Assembly (NCBI GenBank): GCA_003135635.1
Contig: PLCJ01000002.1
Coordinates: 109,451-173,450, forward strand
Origin: Candidatus Adlerbacteria bacterium
GTDB lineage: Bacteria; Patescibacteriota; Minisyncoccia; Phycocordibacterales; SBAW01
DNA length: 64,000 bases
Direction of reading: 5' to 3'
Shown here: one piece after another, positions 5,627 through 38,437 of the stretch
Layout of the letters: each line of letters opens with the position of its first letter
Numbering within the stretch: the stretch's first letter is position 1
Program-made: the position numbers and the translations under genes
The notes under the pieces: model-generated
Told to the model about the DNA's origin: nothing
The model's input: the letters and a program-made list of their open reading frames with translations, nothing else
Database searches by the model: none

Positions 5627-5706
5627 TATTTAATCAAGAAAACTTTCCCTTTGGTGCGCAATGAGCTATAATAGAAACATATTCGTCTAGCTATAAAAAA
5701 AATAGT

Positions 5707-6159
5707 ATGAGTGCAGATATGAAAGGAAGGGGCAAGGATCTCACGGTGGAAGCACCCCGAAGTCCTCATGCAAATATGGGTGGTTTTGTCATTATTGCCC
5801 GCACGATTGATAAGTGTCGTGCGTTGCTGTGGGGCAATATCGGTGAATATCATTTTGATTGTCCTCTCGATAATATGCTCTTTGGTCTCAAGGGTATTAA
5901 GGGAGATGATTTTAAACAGTTTGTTGAAACCGGTGCAACAGATGAAGAAATAGTAGAGTGGGTTAAGAATAACGGGGTACCAAAGACTGAAGATGAGATC
6001 AAAGCCTGGTCAGAAAAAGTCTCCAATGATAATTATTCCACTCAAGCACCAGAGAAGAAGCAATGGCTATCAGAGAGCGCGGTAAAGCTCGGGTTAGATA
6101 AGGACGCCACACTCTTTGACTTCCTTGACGCTGATGATAAGGCGACGTTCTCAAAATAA
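5707..6159 (+). CDS. conserved hypothetical protein (DUF5069-like)
   Basis: 150-aa ORF; GGFVIIARTIDKCRA block resembles the DUF5069 family; assignment is from memory only. Confidence 0.45.
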   Translation: MSADMKGRGKDLTVEAPRSPHANMGGFVIIARTIDKCRALLWGNIGEYHFDCPLDNMLFGLKGIKGDDFKQFVETGATDEEIVEWVKNNGVPKTEDEIKAWSEKVSNDNYSTQAPEKKQWLSESAVKLGLDKDATLFDFLDADDKATFSK

Positions 6160-6218: not shown

Positions 6219-6929
6219 ATGAACATTATCTATTTAGGTACAGCCTTCATTGCAGGTGTCGTGAGTTTCTTATCCCCGTGCGTGCTTCCCATTATTCCCG
6301 GCTTCCTTGCGTACCTTGCCGGTTCAACCCAAGTTGCCTCAGTTACCAAACGTAGGGACATTTTTGTTAATGCGGTGTTCTTCGTGCTTGGTTTTTCAGT
6401 AGTTTTTGCGCTTCTGGGTATTCTTCTCCAGACGATACTTTTATCTGTCGGTTTTGAAGTACAAGCGTGGACTTCGCGCATCGGAGGCATTGTAATCATC
6501 TTCTTTGGTCTCTACTTGGTGGGGCTTATCAAAATAGGGTTTCTCGAGCGGGATCATAAAATCACCATTAAAAAAACGTTCAATTCGCGCTATCTTACTT
6601 CATTCGTCTTTGGTATTGCTTTTGCGGTTGGATGGACGCCTTGCGTTGGGGCAGTTCTCGGCGGAATACTTGCTCTTGCGACATCTGCTCCGCTTTCAGC
6701 TTTTTTGCTTCTTTTTATCTATGCGCTCGGACTCGGACTACCGTTTCTTCTCGTGGGACTTTTTACCGCCCAGGCGACGAGTCTCATCGCTCGAATAGGG
6801 GATCGTTTCAAATACGTCAATATGGCATTCGGTGTTATTCTCATTATCCTCGGGGTATTAGTTTTTACCGAAAATCTGAGTTTGCTGGGGAATTTCAATT
6901 TTATTAATAATCTCTTTCTTGCAAAATAA
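6219..6929 (+). CDS. ccdA: cytochrome c-type biogenesis / thiol-disulfide transporter CcdA (DsbD family)
   Basis: 236 aa, polytopic; conserved Cys in TM1 (LSPCVLPIIPGF) and TM4 (GWTPCVGAVLG), typical of CcdA/DsbD-beta. Confidence 0.75.
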   Translation: MNIIYLGTAFIAGVVSFLSPCVLPIIPGFLAYLAGSTQVASVTKRRDIFVNAVFFVLGFSVVFALLGILLQTILLSVGFEVQAWTSRIGGIVIIFFGLYLVGLIKIGFLERDHKITIKKTFNSRYLTSFVFGIAFAVGWTPCVGAVLGGILALATSAPLSAFLLLFIYALGLGLPFLLVGLFTAQATSLIARIGDRFKYVNMAFGVILIILGVLVFTENLSLLGNFNFINNLFLAK

Positions 6930-31374: not shown

Positions 31375-33414
31375 ATGGCACGTTTTGCTATTACGGCTCC
31401 GTATACGCCGGCGGGAGATCAACCCAAAGCGATTGACGCGCTTTTTGAAGGGCTCAAAAAAGGTTCCCCGCATCAAACACTTTTAGGGGTGACCGGTTCT
31501 GGAAAAACCTTCACTATCGCAAATGTTATTGATCGCTTGCAGAAACCAACGCTCGTCATTGCACACAACAAAACGCTAGCCGCTCAGCTTACTCAAGAAT
31601 ATCGGGAGTTTTTTCCCAACAACGCCGTCCACTATTTTGTCTCTTACTATGACTATTATCAACCGGAGGCGTATCTCCCTACGAGCGATACCTATATAGA
31701 AAAAGAGGCCCAAATTAATAAAGAAATTGATCGACTACGCCACGCTTCAACGCAAGCACTCCTCACTCGCCCAGATGTCATTATCGTTGCATCCGTTTCT
31801 TGTATTTATGCTCTCGGTAGCCCTGAGGAGTATCGTCGGGTACATATGGAGTTGCGCGCGGGCATGAAAAAAAATCGTGCTGAGCTTATTCGGGAACTCG
31901 TCGGTTTATATTTTGAGCGTACCACCGCCGATCTCATGCCTGGTATGTTTCGCGCGCTTGGCAACAGCATTGAAATTATGCCGACCGGCGAGCAAATCTT
32001 ATACCGGATTGAATTTCAACAAGACACCATCGAGCGGGTACGCATTATTGATGCCATAACCCGCACAGAAAAAGAACCACTGCCGTTTTTATTTCTTTTT
32101 CCTGCCAAACATTACGTTACTCCCGAGCATGAGCGCGACCGTGCGATCAAAGATATTGAGCGTGAGCTCACCCAGCAGCTTCAGAAATTTGAGCGCTCCG
32201 GAAAAATTCTTGAGGCCGAACGGCTCAAGCGCCGTACGAATCATGATCTCGCCCTTATTCGCGAGATGGGGTATTGCAATGGAATAGAAAATTACTCCCG
32301 CCACTTCGACGGGCGTGCTCCCGGAGAGCCTCCGTATACGCTTCTTGATTATTTTCCACACACTCCACAGGGCAAAGCTGATTTTCTTACGATTATCGAT
32401 GAGTCTCATGTCACTGTGCCGCAAATTGGCGGTATGTATGCGGGGGACCGGTCGCGCAAAGAGACACTGGTGGAGCACGGGTTTCGGCTTCCTTCCGCTA
32501 TCGATAACCGGCCGCTTCAATTTGAGGAGTTTGAGAGTGCCATTGGTCAGGTGATTTATACCTCTGCGACCCCAGGACCCTATGAGCGGGAAACCTCAAA
32601 AAAAACTATGGTCGAGCAAATTATTCGCCCCACCGGTCTTATTGATCCGGAAGTGATCGTGCGACCGATAACCGGGGTGCTGGGTGCAGTGCAGGGACAA
32701 GTGGAAGACCTTCTTAAGGAGGCTGAGGGGGTTATTTCCAAAGGCGCTCGGGTACTGATTACCACGCTTACCAAAAAAATGGCGGAGGATCTCTCAGATT
32801 TTCTTAAAGATCGAGGTTTAAAAACGGCATACCTACACAGCGACGTGCAAACTCTTGACCGCATCACTACGCTCACAGGTCTGCGCAAGGGAGAGTTTGA
32901 TGTATTGGTGGGTGTTAACCTGCTTCGCGAGGGACTGGACCTGCCGGAGGTTGAGTTGGTCGCTATCTTGGACGCCGATAAGCAAGGATTCTTACGCTCG
33001 GAGACTTCACTTATTCAAACCATTGGGCGAGCAGCGCGAAACGTCAACGGGCGTGTTATTTTATATGCCGATCAAATGACTGGCTCGCTCACAAGGGCAA
33101 TTGATGAAACGAACCGACGCCGTGCATTGCAACACGCATACAATGAAGAGCACGGTATTACACCGCAGACGATTCGAAAAAATATCAAAGATATCACCGA
33201 AGAGTTGCGAAGCGATCACGCCAAAGCGGTAGGGGTCATGTTTACGATAGATAAGGATCTCTATGCAAAAAATCCTAAAAAATTTATTGTCGAAAAACGT
33301 CGCCAGATGATTGATGCGGTCAAAGAGCTCGACTTTGAAACTGCAGCACTTCTGCGTGATGAAATCTATGCTCTGACAGGAGAGGGAAGAGTAAAAAAGA
33401 AAGTAGGTGCCTAA
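31375..33414 (+). CDS. uvrB: excinuclease ABC subunit B
   Basis: helicase motifs GVTGSGKTF and DESH, beta-hairpin, C-terminal UVR domain (ALLRDEIYAL). Confidence 0.95.
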   Translation: MARFAITAPYTPAGDQPKAIDALFEGLKKGSPHQTLLGVTGSGKTFTIANVIDRLQKPTLVIAHNKTLAAQLTQEYREFFPNNAVHYFVSYYDYYQPEAYLPTSDTYIEKEAQINKEIDRLRHASTQALLTRPDVIIVASVSCIYALGSPEEYRRVHMELRAGMKKNRAELIRELVGLYFERTTADLMPGMFRALGNSIEIMPTGEQILYRIEFQQDTIERVRIIDAITRTEKEPLPFLFLFPAKHYVTPEHERDRAIKDIERELTQQLQKFERSGKILEAERLKRRTNHDLALIREMGYCNGIENYSRHFDGRAPGEPPYTLLDYFPHTPQGKADFLTIIDESHVTVPQIGGMYAGDRSRKETLVEHGFRLPSAIDNRPLQFEEFESAIGQVIYTSATPGPYERETSKKTMVEQIIRPTGLIDPEVIVRPITGVLGAVQGQVEDLLKEAEGVISKGARVLITTLTKKMAEDLSDFLKDRGLKTAYLHSDVQTLDRITTLTGLRKGEFDVLVGVNLLREGLDLPEVELVAILDADKQGFLRSETSLIQTIGRAARNVNGRVILYADQMTGSLTRAIDETNRRRALQHAYNEEHGITPQTIRKNIKDITEELRSDHAKAVGVMFTIDKDLYAKNPKKFIVEKRRQMIDAVKELDFETAALLRDEIYALTGEGRVKKKVGA

Positions 33415-33475
33415 GAGCAATATGTCCTTTTGGTGTCTAACGTAGTATTCTCTTGTTGGAAAGGAGGGAGTCGCT

Positions 33476-33994
33476 ATGGCCCTCATAATTGGCGGCAAAC
33501 CCAAACGCCAGCTTCTGCGGGAATTAAAAGAAGGCGGTTTCCTGGTGGCTGATGAAGCTCGAGACATTATCATTAACCATGCGTTCACGACGCTTCCTGA
33601 AACCGAACTAATCGACGACCTCGGAATTGTCATCGTGCGAGATCTGGGTAGTTTTCCTGAGAGAGAGCCAACGACAGGTCAACTATGGGCTCGCATACGT
33701 GAATCGGGATATGGTCTCTGTCCAGCGGAAACCGCTCTCCACCTGCGTCTTCAAGGAGATCAGGGACACGGCAACTACTGCTGGATGGCGATGGAGCGGG
33801 TCGCTGGTTCCAAGGGTAATCTGTACGTATTCACTCTCCGGCGTGGTAACGATGGCAAGCTTTGGCTTGATGTCGAGCGTGCCAATCCGGGTGATCCGTG
33901 GCGTATTAACAGCTGTCTCATCGTCCGTCTGCAGTCCCATGACCGAAGGCCAGCAACATGGGGTTCTTCCGATCTCATGTCAGTTCCCGTATGA
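33476..33994 (+). CDS. hypothetical protein (GC-rich gene inserted between uvrB and uvrA)
   Basis: 172 aa; strong RBS AAGGAGGGA; coding GC visibly higher than the flanks; followed by its own terminator. Confidence 0.55.
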   Translation: MALIIGGKPKRQLLRELKEGGFLVADEARDIIINHAFTTLPETELIDDLGIVIVRDLGSFPEREPTTGQLWARIRESGYGLCPAETALHLRLQGDQGHGNYCWMAMERVAGSKGNLYVFTLRRGNDGKLWLDVERANPGDPWRINSCLIVRLQSHDRRPATWGSSDLMSVPV

Positions 33995-34002
33995 ACTTCG
34001 GT

Positions 34003-34045
34003 TCACAAGCACCAGGTCCTGTCGCATCGCGCACAGGACCTACTT
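34003..34045 (+). terminator. rho-independent terminator
   Basis: AGGTCCTGT / ACAGGACCT 9-bp stem followed by ACTTTGTTTTTATATATA. Confidence 0.5.
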
Positions 34046-34107
34046 TGTTTTTATATATACGTTTATTAATAAAATCGATGGAAGATCGAAAGATTACACT
34101 TTCCCTA

Positions 34108-34129
34108 GTGGATGATGTTAGAAACTATT
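34108..34129 (-). repeat. copy of recurrent intergenic motif (TAGTTTCTAACATCATCCAC)
   Basis: plus strand gtggatgatgttagaaactatt; on the minus strand it follows terminator + TTTTTTATATAG. Confidence 0.6.
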
Positions 34130-34151
34130 GGAAAAAGAGAAGTAACTATAT

Positions 34152-34181
34152 AAAAAAGAAGCGTCGACAAAAGCCGACGCT
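34152..34181 (-). terminator. rho-independent terminator downstream of the tRNA-like gene
   Basis: agcgtcg / cgacgct stem, then a T-run on the minus strand. Confidence 0.5.
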
Positions 34182-34189
34182 GTGTAACT

Positions 34190-34266
34190 CTCCGGTGAAG
34201 GGAATCGAACCCTCGACGGCTGGTTTTTTTAATCATCCGGCCACTCTACCACTGAGCTACACCGGA
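34190..34266 (-). tRNA. tRNA-like gene with atypical 13-nt anticodon loop (possible pseudo-tRNA)
   Basis: 7-bp acceptor TCCGGTG/CACCGGA, D-arm GCTCAGTGGTAGAGT, T-arm GAGGGTTCGATTCCCTT; the anticodon region GCCGG-ATGATTAAAAAAA-CCAGC does not fold into a canonical 5-bp/7-nt arm. Confidence 0.5.
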
Positions 34267-34551
34267 ACGTTTATGGCGGTCAGGGACAGTTGAGTTTTCA
34301 GCTCTCAGTGAATGCGAGAAAAGCGCCCGCTTCGGGGTCCACCTTACTATCTACGCTCACACTGTCCCTGACCTGCATCGTATGATGCTTGGCACACTGG
34401 CTCTTGTCAATCAAAAGTATCCGCATCCATCTCTAAACAGCGTTTTCATTGAGTTGCAACATGTTTTAGGAAAGTTAATGTGCTATACTACCTTCTTACA
34501 TACCCCCTCGGAGCAACCGTGGGGCGTATTCCGTGTTTAAAACACCTCACT

Positions 34552-37149
34552 ATGGAAGACTACATACATATAAAAGGAGCAAAAACGCACAATCTCAAGA
34601 ATATCTCTCTTACCATTCCACGCAACAAAATGGTGGTATTTACGGGACTTTCTGGCTCGGGTAAATCCTCCTTAGCTTTTGATACTATTTTTGCCGAGGG
34701 GCAGCGCCGGTATATCGAATCGCTTTCTGCCTATGCCAGGCAGTTTTTGCGCCAAATGCAAAAGCCCGATGTGGAAGAAATCACCGGACTTTCGCCAGCC
34801 ATTTCTATCGATCAGAAAAGTCGATCCAATAATCCCCGTTCAACCGTGGCAACGATCACGGAAATCTATGACTACCTACGTATTCTTTTCGCGCGCGTGG
34901 GCAAGCCACACTGCCTTATATGTGGGAGAGAAATTAAGAAACATTCCAATGAAGAAATAGTACAAAGTGTGGTGGAGGGTGTCATGAAATCTACACCTAA
35001 AAAAACTCGCAAGATAATGAACATAGATGTTGTCGAAGACACTGTCAAGATTTTTTCCCCGGTGGTTGTTGGTCGAAAGGGGGAATATTATCAGATGCTT
35101 TATGATCTTCTTAATAAAGGGTTTGAAAAAGTGACTATTGATGGAAAATTCATGAGTTTGCGTGAACGAGTAGTACTTGAAAAAAATAAGAAACACGATA
35201 TTGATGTTCTTATTGATGAAATACTTGTCACTGAATTTACAAGAAATCACCAAGCTGCTTTGGAGCGTCTCTCAGAAGCAGTCGAACGGGCGCTTCACGA
35301 AAGCGGGGGACTGGTAAAAATCGAAGACATGCACGGTACGCGTTTAGTCTCAGCAAAGTTCATGTGCGCTTACGATGGTTTCTCATTTCCTGAAGTTGAA
35401 CCGAGACTATTCTCTTTCAATTCTCCCTATGGGGCATGTCCGGAGTGCAACGGTCTCGGGACAAAGCATTTTTGGACTGACGAGGAGTGCCCGGTGTGCC
35501 ATGGCCTGCGTCTGCGGCCTGAGGCACTGAGTGTCTTTATCGGAGAGAAGACTGGGGCAACGCATGGAAAAAATATTGTTGACATAACGCAACTTGCTAT
35601 TGGGGATGCCTTTGCTTTTTTTAATGCCCTTGAACTTTCAAAAAAAGACAAGGAAATTTCAAAAACAGTTGTCAAAGAGATCTCTGCTCGGTTGAAATTT
35701 ATGCTTGATGTGGGGCTTGATTACCTCACTTTGGACCGCAAAGCAAACACGCTCTCCGGTGGAGAAGCGCAGCGCATCCGTCTTGCCTCTCAACTAGGCT
35801 CTGGGCTCGTAGGAGCGCTCTACGTACTTGATGAACCCACCATCGGACTTCATCAGCGCGATAACGAACGCCTTATCAAAACACTGCTTAACCTGCGGGA
35901 CCTCGGTAATACCATTATTGTTGTTGAGCACGATGAAGATACCATCTACTCGGCGGATTACTTGGTTGATATAGGCCCTGGTGCGGGGGTACACGGCGGC
36001 CAGATTGTCGTTTCCGATTATTTAGAGAAACTGCTGACTGCGAAGAAAAACGATAGCGGTTCTGTGACACTTGCATATTTGCGCGGAGAAAAGATGCTGC
36101 CGGTTCCAGAAAAGCGACGCAGTGGCGATAAGGGAGCGATAAAAATCCGCGGTGGATCGGCATTCAATATCAATAATCTTTCCGTTGACATCCCGCTTGG
36201 CAGGCTTATTGCCGTTACCGGGGTATCTGGTTCAGGGAAATCAACATTTCTCTACGAGATAGTGCACGAAAATCTAAAAGCACGCTTTGACAAGCGCTAT
36301 CGCAGCAACAAAGTGCATAATGCTTCCCGGGTGGAAGGGTTGGAATATCTTTCCCGAGCGATCCTTATTGATCAATCAGCAATCGGGCGCACTCCGCGCT
36401 CAAATCCAGCGACCTATACCGGCACGTTTACTTTCATTCGTGACTTATTTGCTTCAACTCATGAGGCGCGTGCACGTGGCTGGAAGGCAGGTCGGTTTTC
36501 TTTCAATGTGCCACAAGCGCGCGGTGGCGGTCGGTGCGAAGCATGCGAAGGGAACGGTACGCTCGCCATTGAGATGCACTTTCTTCCGACGGTGTATGTC
36601 ACCTGTGACATATGCGGGGGCAAGCGGTTTATGAAAGAGACGCTTGAGGTGAAGTATAAAAAGAAAAATATTTATGATGTGCTCAAAATGACTGCGGAAG
36701 ACGCACTGCAGTTTTTTAATGATATCCCGCCGATTTATGATCGGCTTAAGGCTCTGGAGGAAGTGGGACTTGGCTATCTGGAGTTAGGACAAAGCGCCAC
36801 AACTCTCTCCGGTGGGGAAGCACAGCGGGTAAAAATTGCTTCTGAGCTCTACCGTCCACATCTGCAAAAAACGATCTATCTTCTTGATGAACCTACGGTG
36901 GGTCTTCATTATGAGGATGTGGCAAAACTTATCGATATACTCAACCGTCTCGTTTCGGCAGGTAATACCGTCATGCTCATTGAGCACAACATGGACATTA
37001 TCAAAAGCGCCGACTGGGTGCTCGATTTTGGGCCCGATGGGGGAGCTCAGGGTGGCAGACTCATTGCAAAAGGAACACCGGAAGATATTGCCAACACCAA
37101 AGACTCCCACACTGGGTACTATCTTAAAAAGGCGCTCAGGGGAACATGA
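34552..37149 (+). CDS. uvrA: excinuclease ABC subunit A
   Basis: two ABC cassettes (GLSGSGKSS / [17 protein letters not shown] x2) and zinc fingers ([16 protein letters not shown]); start placed at [18 protein letters not shown]. Confidence 0.95.
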
Positions 37150-37162
37150 AGCAGATTTTGCT

Positions 37163-38437
37163 ATGACACTTCAAGAGTTTAAAAAGAAAAGCAGTCGCAT
37201 GCCCGATACGCCGGGGGTGTATTTTTTTCTTGGCAGCCGTAAAGAAACGCTCTATATCGGCAAAGCAACCAGTCTGCGAAGCCGTACGCGCAGTTATTTT
37301 TCAGGTGATCTCGCGCATACCCGTGGCGTTTTTGTCGCCTCGATGGTCGCGCGGGCGCGAGGACTTGATTGGAGAGAAACCGATTCGGTCCTCGAAGCCC
37401 TTATCCTTGAGGCAAACCTTATCAAGCACTACAAACCGCACTACAACACACTCGCCAAAGATGATAAGAGTTTTAATTACGTGGTTATTACCAAAGAGGC
37501 TTTCCCGCGCGTGCTTTTGGTGCGTGGAAAGAATCTCGAGACAGAATTTCCTGCGCACTCTCGCGGGTATCTCTTTGGTCCCTTTCCCCATGGGCTTCAG
37601 TTGCGCGAGGTCCTCAAACTTATTCGGAAGATTTTTCCGTACCGCGACAGCTGTACGCCTGCCCCCGATGCACTCTTGCAAGGCAAAAACCCCAAAGCAT
37701 GCTTTAACCGGCATATCGGGCTGTGCCCCGGTGTGTGCTCAGGGGAAATAGCATCTATGGAATATCGCCGCATCGTGCGGCATATCGTGCTCCTTTTTCA
37801 AGGAAAAAAGAAAGAACTTTTGAGAATGCTACAGCGGGAAATGAAACTCGCGGTGAAAAATGAAGCGTTTGAACGCGCAGGGGTGCTGCATAGGCAGATT
37901 TTTGCCCTCACGCATATCCAAGATGTCTCCCTCATTAAAGAGGAATATCATCGACCGCCGACCAGCAGCATCCGTCGCATTGAAGCCTATGACATCGCGC
38001 ACCTACAGGGCTCGGCTAACGTGGGCGTCATGGTGGTGGTTGAAGACGGTTTGGCGCAGAAAGGGGAGTACCGCAAATTCCGGATTCGCTCTGCAAAGTC
38101 GGGCGATGATATTGGGGCTTTGAAGGAAGTGCTTACGCGACGCTTGGAGCACAATGAGTGGCCGCTTCCACAGCTCATTGTTGTTGATGGCGCTATGGCG
38201 CACATTAAAGCTGCACGCAGTGTACTTACCCACTACGGCGTAGGTATACCCGTTATTAGTGTGGTGAAAGATGAAAAACATCGTCCGCGGGGGATTACGG
38301 GTCTGCGCGATCAAGCTCTCGGGGGCCTCAGTATCAAAATAGATGAGCGAGAGATTCTTTTGGCAAATGCAGAAGCGCATCGCTTTGCGATTGGCTATCA
38401 TCGCAGAGTAAGTCGCCAGGAAAAAGGTATATACTAA
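37163..38437 (+). CDS. uvrC: excinuclease ABC subunit C (compact form lacking the C-terminal HhH domain)
   Basis: GIY-YIG domain (PGVYFFLG...LYIGKATSLRSR), UVR domain, RNase H-like endonuclease domain (YDIAHLQG); ends at ~425 aa. Confidence 0.85.
   Translation: MTLQEFKKKSSRMPDTPGVYFFLGSRKETLYIGKATSLRSRTRSYFSGDLAHTRGVFVASMVARARGLDWRETDSVLEALILEANLIKHYKPHYNTLAKDDKSFNYVVITKEAFPRVLLVRGKNLETEFPAHSRGYLFGPFPHGLQLREVLKLIRKIFPYRDSCTPAPDALLQGKNPKACFNRHIGLCPGVCSGEIASMEYRRIVRHIVLLFQGKKKELLRMLQREMKLAVKNEAFERAGVLHRQIFALTHIQDVSLIKEEYHRPPTSSIRRIEAYDIAHLQGSANVGVMVVVEDGLAQKGEYRKFRIRSAKSGDDIGALKEVLTRRLEHNEWPLPQLIVVDGAMAHIKAARSVLTHYGVGIPVISVVKDEKHRPRGITGLRDQALGGLSIKIDEREILLANAEAHRFAIGYHRRVSRQEKGIY

Follow-up and report, generated by a model that had tools for sequence, protein, structure and literature searches.

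The tRNA-like gene at 34190-34266 of the window (the whole stretch of 64,000 nucleotides analysed here) combines the intact features of a tRNA with an anticodon arm that is not expected to work, and it lies in a 1-kb insert absent from related genomes; it is therefore most likely a non-decoding pseudo-tRNA. More specifically, we read it, with a probability of about one half, as a decoding-dead derivative of tRNA-Asn that was brought in with foreign DNA and is carried as a passenger of the insert. The element thus most likely joins, as a further example, the known pseudo-tRNAs and tRNA-like genes that adjoin inserted DNA, and does not represent a new kind of tRNA. The features on which this reading draws are collected in Table 1.

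Table 1. Features in and around the tRNA-like gene (positions count from the first nucleotide of the window).
Feature	Position	Strand	Basis and remarks
tRNA-like gene	34190..34266	minus	ARAGORN, Rfam tRNA model, MFE cloverleaf; 77 nt, CCA not encoded
13-nt anticodon loop AUGAUUAAAAAAA	34224..34236	minus	Sequence, cmscan, pairing probabilities
Central C·A mismatch of the anticodon stem (C at 34239 opposite A at 34221, RNA strand)	34221..34239	minus	Sequence and MFE structure
Sigma-70-like promoter match TTGACA-17 nt-CATCAT	34382..34410	minus	Promoter scan, 10/12; consensus match only
106-nt hairpin with three-way junction and 13-bp perfect closing stem GGUCAGGGACAGU/ACUGUCCCUGACC	34273..34378	minus	Inverted repeat, fold
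Intrinsic terminator: 9-bp stem (6 G-C), 4-nt loop, T-run	34150..34181	minus	Terminator scan
172-aa gene, convergent with the tRNA-like gene, in the same insert	33476..33994	plus	Large uncharacterised family
Hairpin AGGTCCTGT...ACAGGACCT with T-rich tail, likely terminator of the 172-aa gene	34014..34052	plus	Read from the sequence
Lineage-specific insert of ~1035 bp, from the uvrB stop codon to the uvrA promoter	33415..~34450		Spacer comparison with relatives

Features of the tRNA-like Gene

The element is derived from a tRNA and keeps a complete scaffold for the L shape. The Rfam tRNA model RF00005 covered it end to end (34190-34266) as a full-length match over model positions 1-71, scoring 47.5 bits against a gathering cutoff of 29 (E 4.8e-7 for the 64-kb window), while the five ordinary tRNAs of the window reached 59-73 bits with the same model. 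ARAGORN called it at 34189-34267 as 'tRNA-Leu' with the anticodon taa at position 37. Read on its own strand, the RNA is UCCGGUG-UA-GCUC-AGUGGUA-GAGU-G-GCCGG-AUGAUUAAAAAAA-CCAGC-CGUC-GAGGG-UUCGAUU-CCCUU-CACCGGA-G, and its minimum-energy fold is the cloverleaf. The acceptor stem is made of Watson-Crick pairs throughout (7/7), the D stem has four pairs and the T stem five, each including one G·U, and the T arm is canonical, with a loop that follows GTTCRA. Every base of the L shape is kept, namely U8, A14, G18G19, the G15:C48 and U54-A58 pairs, and G53:C61. The CCA end is likewise unencoded in four of the five other tRNAs of the window. No Rfam family besides tRNA (tmRNA, YrlA and similar RNAs included) matched at E<=10 within 33950-34600, and ARAGORN found no tmRNA.

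All defects are gathered in the single arm that is needed for decoding, the other stems and the tertiary bases being undamaged. The anticodon stem consists of G:C, C:G, C·A, G:C and G:C, possibly extended by a G26:C44 pair, and it closes 13 nt, only six more than the standard loop, with a run of seven A among them. In the cmscan alignment a 10-nt run stands at the place of four model positions, and in the ensemble most bases of the loop pair with a probability below 0.1, with one U-A contact across the loop at roughly 0.3. An elongator tRNA should show a 5-bp anticodon stem, a 7-nt loop, U33 and a purine at 37, and what we found instead is a 13-nt loop behind a stem with a C·A mismatch. Nor is the Asn anticodon G34 U35 U36 formed, since an A separates the G from the UU in the loop and no 7-nt frame accommodates the triplet; the loop reads G-A-UU-AA followed by five more A and stands about three events away from CUGUUAA. 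As the gene offers no GUU anticodon, no 7-nt loop, no intron motif and no long variable arm, normal charging and decoding are not expected.

These results bear directly on the original prediction, which had located the element exactly, although the gene is on the minus strand, the sequence quoted being the reverse complement. The fold that it described (a perfect 7-bp acceptor stem, a D arm, a canonical T arm and a 5-bp anticodon stem with one C·A mismatch closing a 13-nt loop) was recovered from both the sequence and the folds. The covariance search, which it had named as the way to uncover an overlooked canonical 7-nt loop, put a large insertion in the loop as well.

Regarding the isotype from which the gene descends, the acceptor end, with U1:A72 and the discriminator base G73, carries the signature of tRNA-Asn. 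ARAGORN gave 415 calls in the fetched loci; among the roughly 300 distinct scorable tRNAs in this set, the combination was present in 15/19 tRNA-Asn and in 1 tRNA of all other isotypes. The first 23 nt are identical to those of the tRNA-Asn(GUU) of two contigs (L086 and L093), and a blastn search of phages hit an annotated tRNA-Asn, but also a tRNA-Trp. Over the whole body, tRNA-Trp genes score equal to tRNA-Asn, in part because the comparison set was chosen by D-arm sequence. Asn identity resides in the three anticodon bases together with G73, with U1-A72 serving as the determinant for the amidotransferase (PMC9976931), so that, of the two halves of the Asn identity set, the gene retains the one in the acceptor end and lacks the one in the anticodon. 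Its likeness to bacterial tRNA-Asn(GUU) covers, besides U1:A72 and G73, the D arm GCUCAGUGGUAGAG, the short variable region xGUC and the canonical T arm; it differs in the enlarged loop, with no GUU in a 7-nt frame, and in the mismatched anticodon stem. The tRNA-Leu(UAA) label given by ARAGORN was ruled out by the 4-nt variable region (CGUC) and by G73. Bacterial tRNA-Leu belongs to class II, with a long variable arm, and carries A73.

The two contigs that share the first 23 nt are listed as 'viral' and hold a tmRNA gene beside a Pro-Arg-Met-Asn tRNA cluster (L086 5553-5913 and L093 6526-6875); instead of phage genomes, these contigs may represent pieces of bacterial or prophage-flanking DNA.

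Genomic Context of the tRNA-like Gene

On the minus strand, a promoter-like site, the 106-nt hairpin, a 6-nt spacer, the tRNA-like gene, an 8-nt spacer and the terminator follow one another in this order. The promoter match would place the start of transcription at the foot of the hairpin; its -10 hexamer (CATCAT) is weak. Formed by a 13-18-bp inverted repeat that ends 6 nt upstream of the tRNA-like gene, the hairpin folds at -45.4 kcal/mol (z = -4.0; 0/200 shuffles as stable) and is equally stable on both strands. It had no Rfam match at E<=10, and no second copy was found in the window or among the 225 fetched loci. At the place, 60 nt past the element, where a copy of a recurrent motif had been noted, there is this inverted repeat; when the k-mers of 34000-34560 were counted against the whole window, only A/T-run words came up besides the local repeat, and no recurrent motif was found. 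The terminator begins 8 nt past the discriminator base, and for the full 233-nt predicted transcript the fold comprises hairpin, cloverleaf and terminator (z = -4.4). Two further candidates were set aside. Complementarity of the A-rich loop to the uvrA mRNA came down to ordinary homopolymer words in coding sequence (a match at 35616 and a same-sense copy at 6567). We also do not claim a conserved divergent promoter, as TGTCAA occurs at a roughly similar place in two relatives (L156, L158) but is poorly spaced to any -10.

The window lies on a 340-kb metagenome contig and has the gene order tgt, uvrB (31375-33414), uvrA (34552-37149), uvrC and ddl, and UvrA and UvrB place the organism among Paceibacteria/Adlerbacteria-like bacteria of the candidate phyla radiation (best UvrA identities 80-85%). 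Six relative contigs (L156, L157, L158, L159, L222 and L224), from about five organisms with UvrA 83-85% identical, share this order, and another (L223) contains the end of uvrB and uvrA. Between the uvrB stop and the uvrA start there are 80-90 nt in L222, L223 and L224, while the spacers of L156, L157, L158 and L159 measure 370-520 nt and are unrelated in sequence to the window. The tRNA, the hairpin and the 172-aa gene are absent between uvrB and uvrA in all of these contigs (L156-L159 and L222-L224), and thus the window carries a lineage-specific insert of ~1 kb. In the spacer, only the uvrA promoter and leader hairpin align between the window and its relatives. The tRNA-like gene itself belongs to the inserted DNA and did not reside at the locus ancestrally: none of the six relative contigs has a tRNA at this place, and the same spacer was also free of tRNA in 14 more distant loci of the candidate phyla radiation. 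Over 1548 nt, an independently assembled JGI contig (L002) is identical to the window. Its first base corresponds exactly to 33415, directly behind the uvrB stop, and a break in the assembly where a variable segment borders would account for this start.

Besides the tRNA-like unit, the insert contains an AT-rich stretch and the 172-aa gene, the latter with a ribosome-binding site and a terminator-like hairpin of its own. The location at the edge of an insert between uvrB and uvrA had been foreseen, and it agrees with the spacers of the relatives, in which no such insert is found. The description of the 172-aa gene as strongly GC-rich did not hold, since its GC content (0.52-0.55) is only slightly raised over that of the surrounding genes (0.42-0.54).

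Several observations concern the neighbourhood at large. A different small ORF occupies the spacer of each long-spacer relative (L156/L158, about 5650-5880, minus; L159, 5675-5866, plus), and the uvrB-uvrA spacer has the look of a place where short foreign segments have landed repeatedly. The uvrA leader (34481-34525) comprises an extended -10, TGCTATACT, and, ~15 nt further on, the hairpin CCCCTCGGAG-NNN-CCGNGGGG; it is also present upstream of uvrA in L156, L158, L159 and L222, nearly invariant across relatives with otherwise unrelated spacers, and in a diverged form in L223 and L224, and it possibly acts as a regulatory element in the uvrA mRNA. UvrA (34552-37149) has 865 aa against the usual ~940 and aligns to its family model in two separate parts that leave about 95 model positions uncovered, and UvrC (37160-38437) has about 424 aa against the usual ~600 and is without the helix-hairpin-helix tail; both features are common to the relatives.

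The protein encoded by the 172-aa gene had no sequence match in Pfam, NCBIfam, PHROG, PADLOC or the PDB, although a profile search gathered a family of 4820 cluster representatives. Some members of this family hold two copies or are fused into proteins of 350-670 aa. The AlphaFold2 model (82 sequences; pLDDT 91, pTM 0.83) found no Foldseek neighbour in the PDB (best E 0.22) or in BFVD (best E 0.08), and the predicted structure may represent a new fold. The hairpin downstream of the gene, having a 10-nt loop, was not called by the terminator scan. The closest homologs are found behind rplE, within a ribosomal protein operon, and beside recA, and the conserved operons or neighbourhoods that hold the homologs are unrelated. 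Downstream of the gene at three homolog loci (L083-L085) there was neither a tRNA nor any Rfam family, but terminators only. No functional coupling between the 172-aa protein and the tRNA-like gene is apparent from these neighbourhoods.

Occurrence in Viral and Metagenomic Sequences

The tRNA-like gene is a singleton, with no homolog in the viral, metagenome pattern or protein-cluster searches. In a metagenome collection to which the source sample does not belong, a pattern requiring an oversized region with an A6 run between the D and T arms of a tRNA matched 62 loci, all of which were intron-type tRNAs (Tyr, Thr, others) or unrelated. In viral contigs, the acceptor stem plus D arm retrieved eight normal tRNAs (Asn, Trp, Thr) and nothing related; the hairpin arms, the loop plus T arm, and the 3' half had 0 matches each, and the oversized inter-arm distance selected 62 tRNA-shaped genes, all unrelated. 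On the strand opposite the tRNA-like gene, gene callers place a spurious 71-aa ORF, and its search among 5.8 billion protein clusters returned itself only. A canonical tRNA-Asn was sought in the 9 kb of the contig beyond the window, where no tRNA was found.

Tentatively comparable genes do occur on viral DNA. A group of tRNA-shaped genes in IMG/VR viral contigs (L094-L155) shares the D arm GTAGCTCAGTGGTAGAG and a normal T loop, and in its long-inter-arm-distance set, anticodon loops of 8-24 nt were counted in 36 of the 48 distinct sequences, including a recurring group with 9-nt loops, CTTGC-aaggcatct-GCAAG. This count suggests that decoding-incompetent tRNA look-alikes are not rare on mobile DNA, and that such genes travel on it. 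The element described here has the same D arm and T loop and an anticodon stem closing an oversized loop, but shows no similarity to these genes in the sequence of the anticodon arm or the acceptor stem.

A further set consists of tRNA-Thr(UGU/CGU) genes (L171 474-531 (-), L187 6997-7054 (+), L179, L197, L202, L203, L207 and L215) with 10-13-nt A-rich introns at 37/38 that form bulge-helix-bulge motifs; one of the contigs comes from a 0.1-um groundwater fraction, and they are probably from small-celled archaea. In the tRNA-Thr(UGU) of L171 and L187, the 13-nt intron AAUGAUUCAAAAA resembles the loop of the gene at 34190-34266; in this intron-bearing tRNA, UUUG pairs with CAAA between flanking 3-nt bulges, and excision leaves UUUGUAA.

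Discussion

If the unit is expressed, transcription from the promoter-like site would yield a precursor of ~230 nt made up of the hairpin leader, the tRNA-like RNA and the terminator, from which an RNase P cut at U1 and 3' trimming would release a 77-nt L-shaped RNA, to which CCA would be added. Charging of this RNA is not expected, because AsnRS and the non-discriminating AspRS need the anticodon as well as G73. On the ribosome, the 13-nt loop would be unable to present a codon-reading triplet. With no charging and a loop that the ribosome could not use, the RNA should play no part in translation, and the gene would most likely be a passenger of the insert.

Among known systems, a close parallel to this probable pseudo-tRNA is tRNAOther of Bacillus cereus, with which the element has in common a tRNA-shaped gene adjoining lineage-specific inserted DNA, though the two have no sequence relationship. 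tRNAOther is a pseudo-tRNA flanking a genomic island, with a readable Trp anticodon, conservation in several Bacilli and experimental phenotypes (PMC3399842), whereas the element at 34190-34266, known here from its sequence, has no readable anticodon and no homolog that we could find. Conservation across related strains or species of the kind seen for tRNAOther did not emerge, as no copy turned up in relatives or in any of the scans.

Some features sit less easily with a pseudo-tRNA. The undamaged scaffold, the plausible promoter and the good terminator, in a streamlined genome of ~1 Mb, fit selection for the tRNA shape as well as they fit a recent arrival. If the anticodon arm took three or four separate mutations, damage nowhere else would be unlikely by chance (about 0.01-0.1 on a rough estimate). 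The isotype is not unique either, given that tRNA-Trp is equal in whole-body similarity. The first two points give some room to a co-opted tRNA-like module, in which promoter, hairpin, tRNA-like part and terminator together yield a functional non-coding RNA, the main rival explanation, which we entertain tentatively. The tRNA shape could be a processing handle through which RNase P and RNase Z free the 106-nt hairpin RNA and fix its ends, or the L-shaped RNA with its A-rich loop could itself be a regulator or decoy, as proposed for tRNAOther. What speaks for co-option is a self-contained predicted transcription unit in a compact genome, with a very stable hairpin (z = -4.0) that begins at the predicted 5' end of the transcript, a 233-nt transcript that folds into three well-defined parts (z = -4.4), and a tRNA scaffold that is perfect outside the anticodon arm, to which all damage is confined; a precedent exists in an island-flanking pseudo-tRNA that acts within a larger regulatory RNA (PMC3399842). 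Weighing against it are the lack of conservation, with neither hairpin nor tRNA-like gene found in the relatives or collections searched, the equal stability of the hairpin on both strands, as in any DNA palindrome, the weak -10 hexamer, and homologs of the 172-aa protein without such an RNA beside them. That the unit is specifically a functional and recently acquired small-RNA gene, freeing the hairpin RNA through recruitment of RNase P and RNase Z or working as a decoy or regulator, seems to us rather doubtful.

It is improbable that the gene is a true decoding tRNA whose anticodon arm is unconventional. Such a tRNA would either extend its stem by A·A, U-A and G·A to leave the 7-nt loop AUUAAAA with the anticodon UAA, as in the 'tRNA-Leu' of ARAGORN, or read a quadruplet with GAUU. 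An anticodon stem three steps longer would misfit the decoding geometry of the ribosome. The UAA that ARAGORN assigns at position 37 and the U-A pair across the loop, with its ensemble probability of roughly 0.3, lend themselves to the first form, but the variable region of 4 nt and G73 are at odds with a bacterial tRNA-Leu, Asn identity requires GUU, and no such gene was found in the other genomes searched, the closest relatives managing without one. Enlarged loops on otherwise normal tRNAs are not by themselves disabling: natural and engineered tRNAs with 8-nt loops decode (PMC4756836, PMC4238358), and SufB2, SufJ and yeast mitochondrial tRNA-Thr1, frameshift-suppressor or mitochondrial tRNAs with one extra nucleotide, still do so (PMC7803779, PMC4238358, PMC4756836). 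The present gene, unlike these, has six extra nucleotides and a stem mismatch. Of the three options that the original prediction had offered, a tRNA pseudogene and a tRNA-like structural RNA both agree with the evidence and together are the likely answer, whereas the genuine noncanonical tRNA is unlikely, an Asn-type acceptor end being joined to an anticodon arm that suits neither Asn nor Leu, with no homolog found. Damage by a mobile element integrated into the anticodon loop, as it had also suggested, is not supported; the loop has only six extra nucleotides, and neither a displaced tRNA half nor a direct repeat was present in 33000-35000.

Removal of the six extra nucleotides by splicing would restore a loop of standard size, and A-rich insertions of 12-13 nt after position 37 are indeed common in the bulge-helix-bulge tRNA-Thr and tRNA-Tyr genes of the metagenome scan, two of which (L171, L187) resemble the present gene in that an otherwise normal cloverleaf carries an A-rich insertion in its anticodon region. 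Their insertions, however, follow position 37 and pair with the anticodon in a 4-bp helix with 3-nt bulges, so that excision produces a perfect 7-nt loop. Here no bulge-helix-bulge can form, as AUGA would need to pair with AAAA and no 4-bp helix results; no intron model matched, and no 6-nt deletion gives a loop that fits the Asn-type acceptor end, the candidates being GAA (Phe) or GAU (Ile). To our knowledge, 6 nt is far below the size of any known intron, and the introns of bacterial tRNAs are of group I. We consider an intron-containing tRNA highly improbable, and the same holds for an assembly or sequencing artefact in the homopolymer run. A run of seven A in a metagenome assembly would invite such an error, but the same 1548 nt are identical in the separately assembled JGI contig, records of the gene products exist from ENA, NCBI and Logan assemblies, and a shorter A-run would still leave AUGAUU and the C·A mismatch in place.

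If the gene is only a pseudo-tRNA, its value is practical, since the tRNA-Leu(UAA) label of ARAGORN and the pass of the Rfam threshold would inflate or distort the tRNA inventories of this candidate-phyla-radiation genome and the inferences on its genetic code. Through the insert, moreover, the uvrB-uvrA spacer stands out as a hot spot for the uptake of foreign DNA in these small genomes. If the unit should prove functional, it would represent a rare bacterial tRNA scaffold kept for a non-decoding role in a lineage with an almost unexplored RNA biology, and, as a small-RNA gene, it would provide a bacterial counterpart of tRNA-like processing handles in a genome of the candidate phyla radiation.
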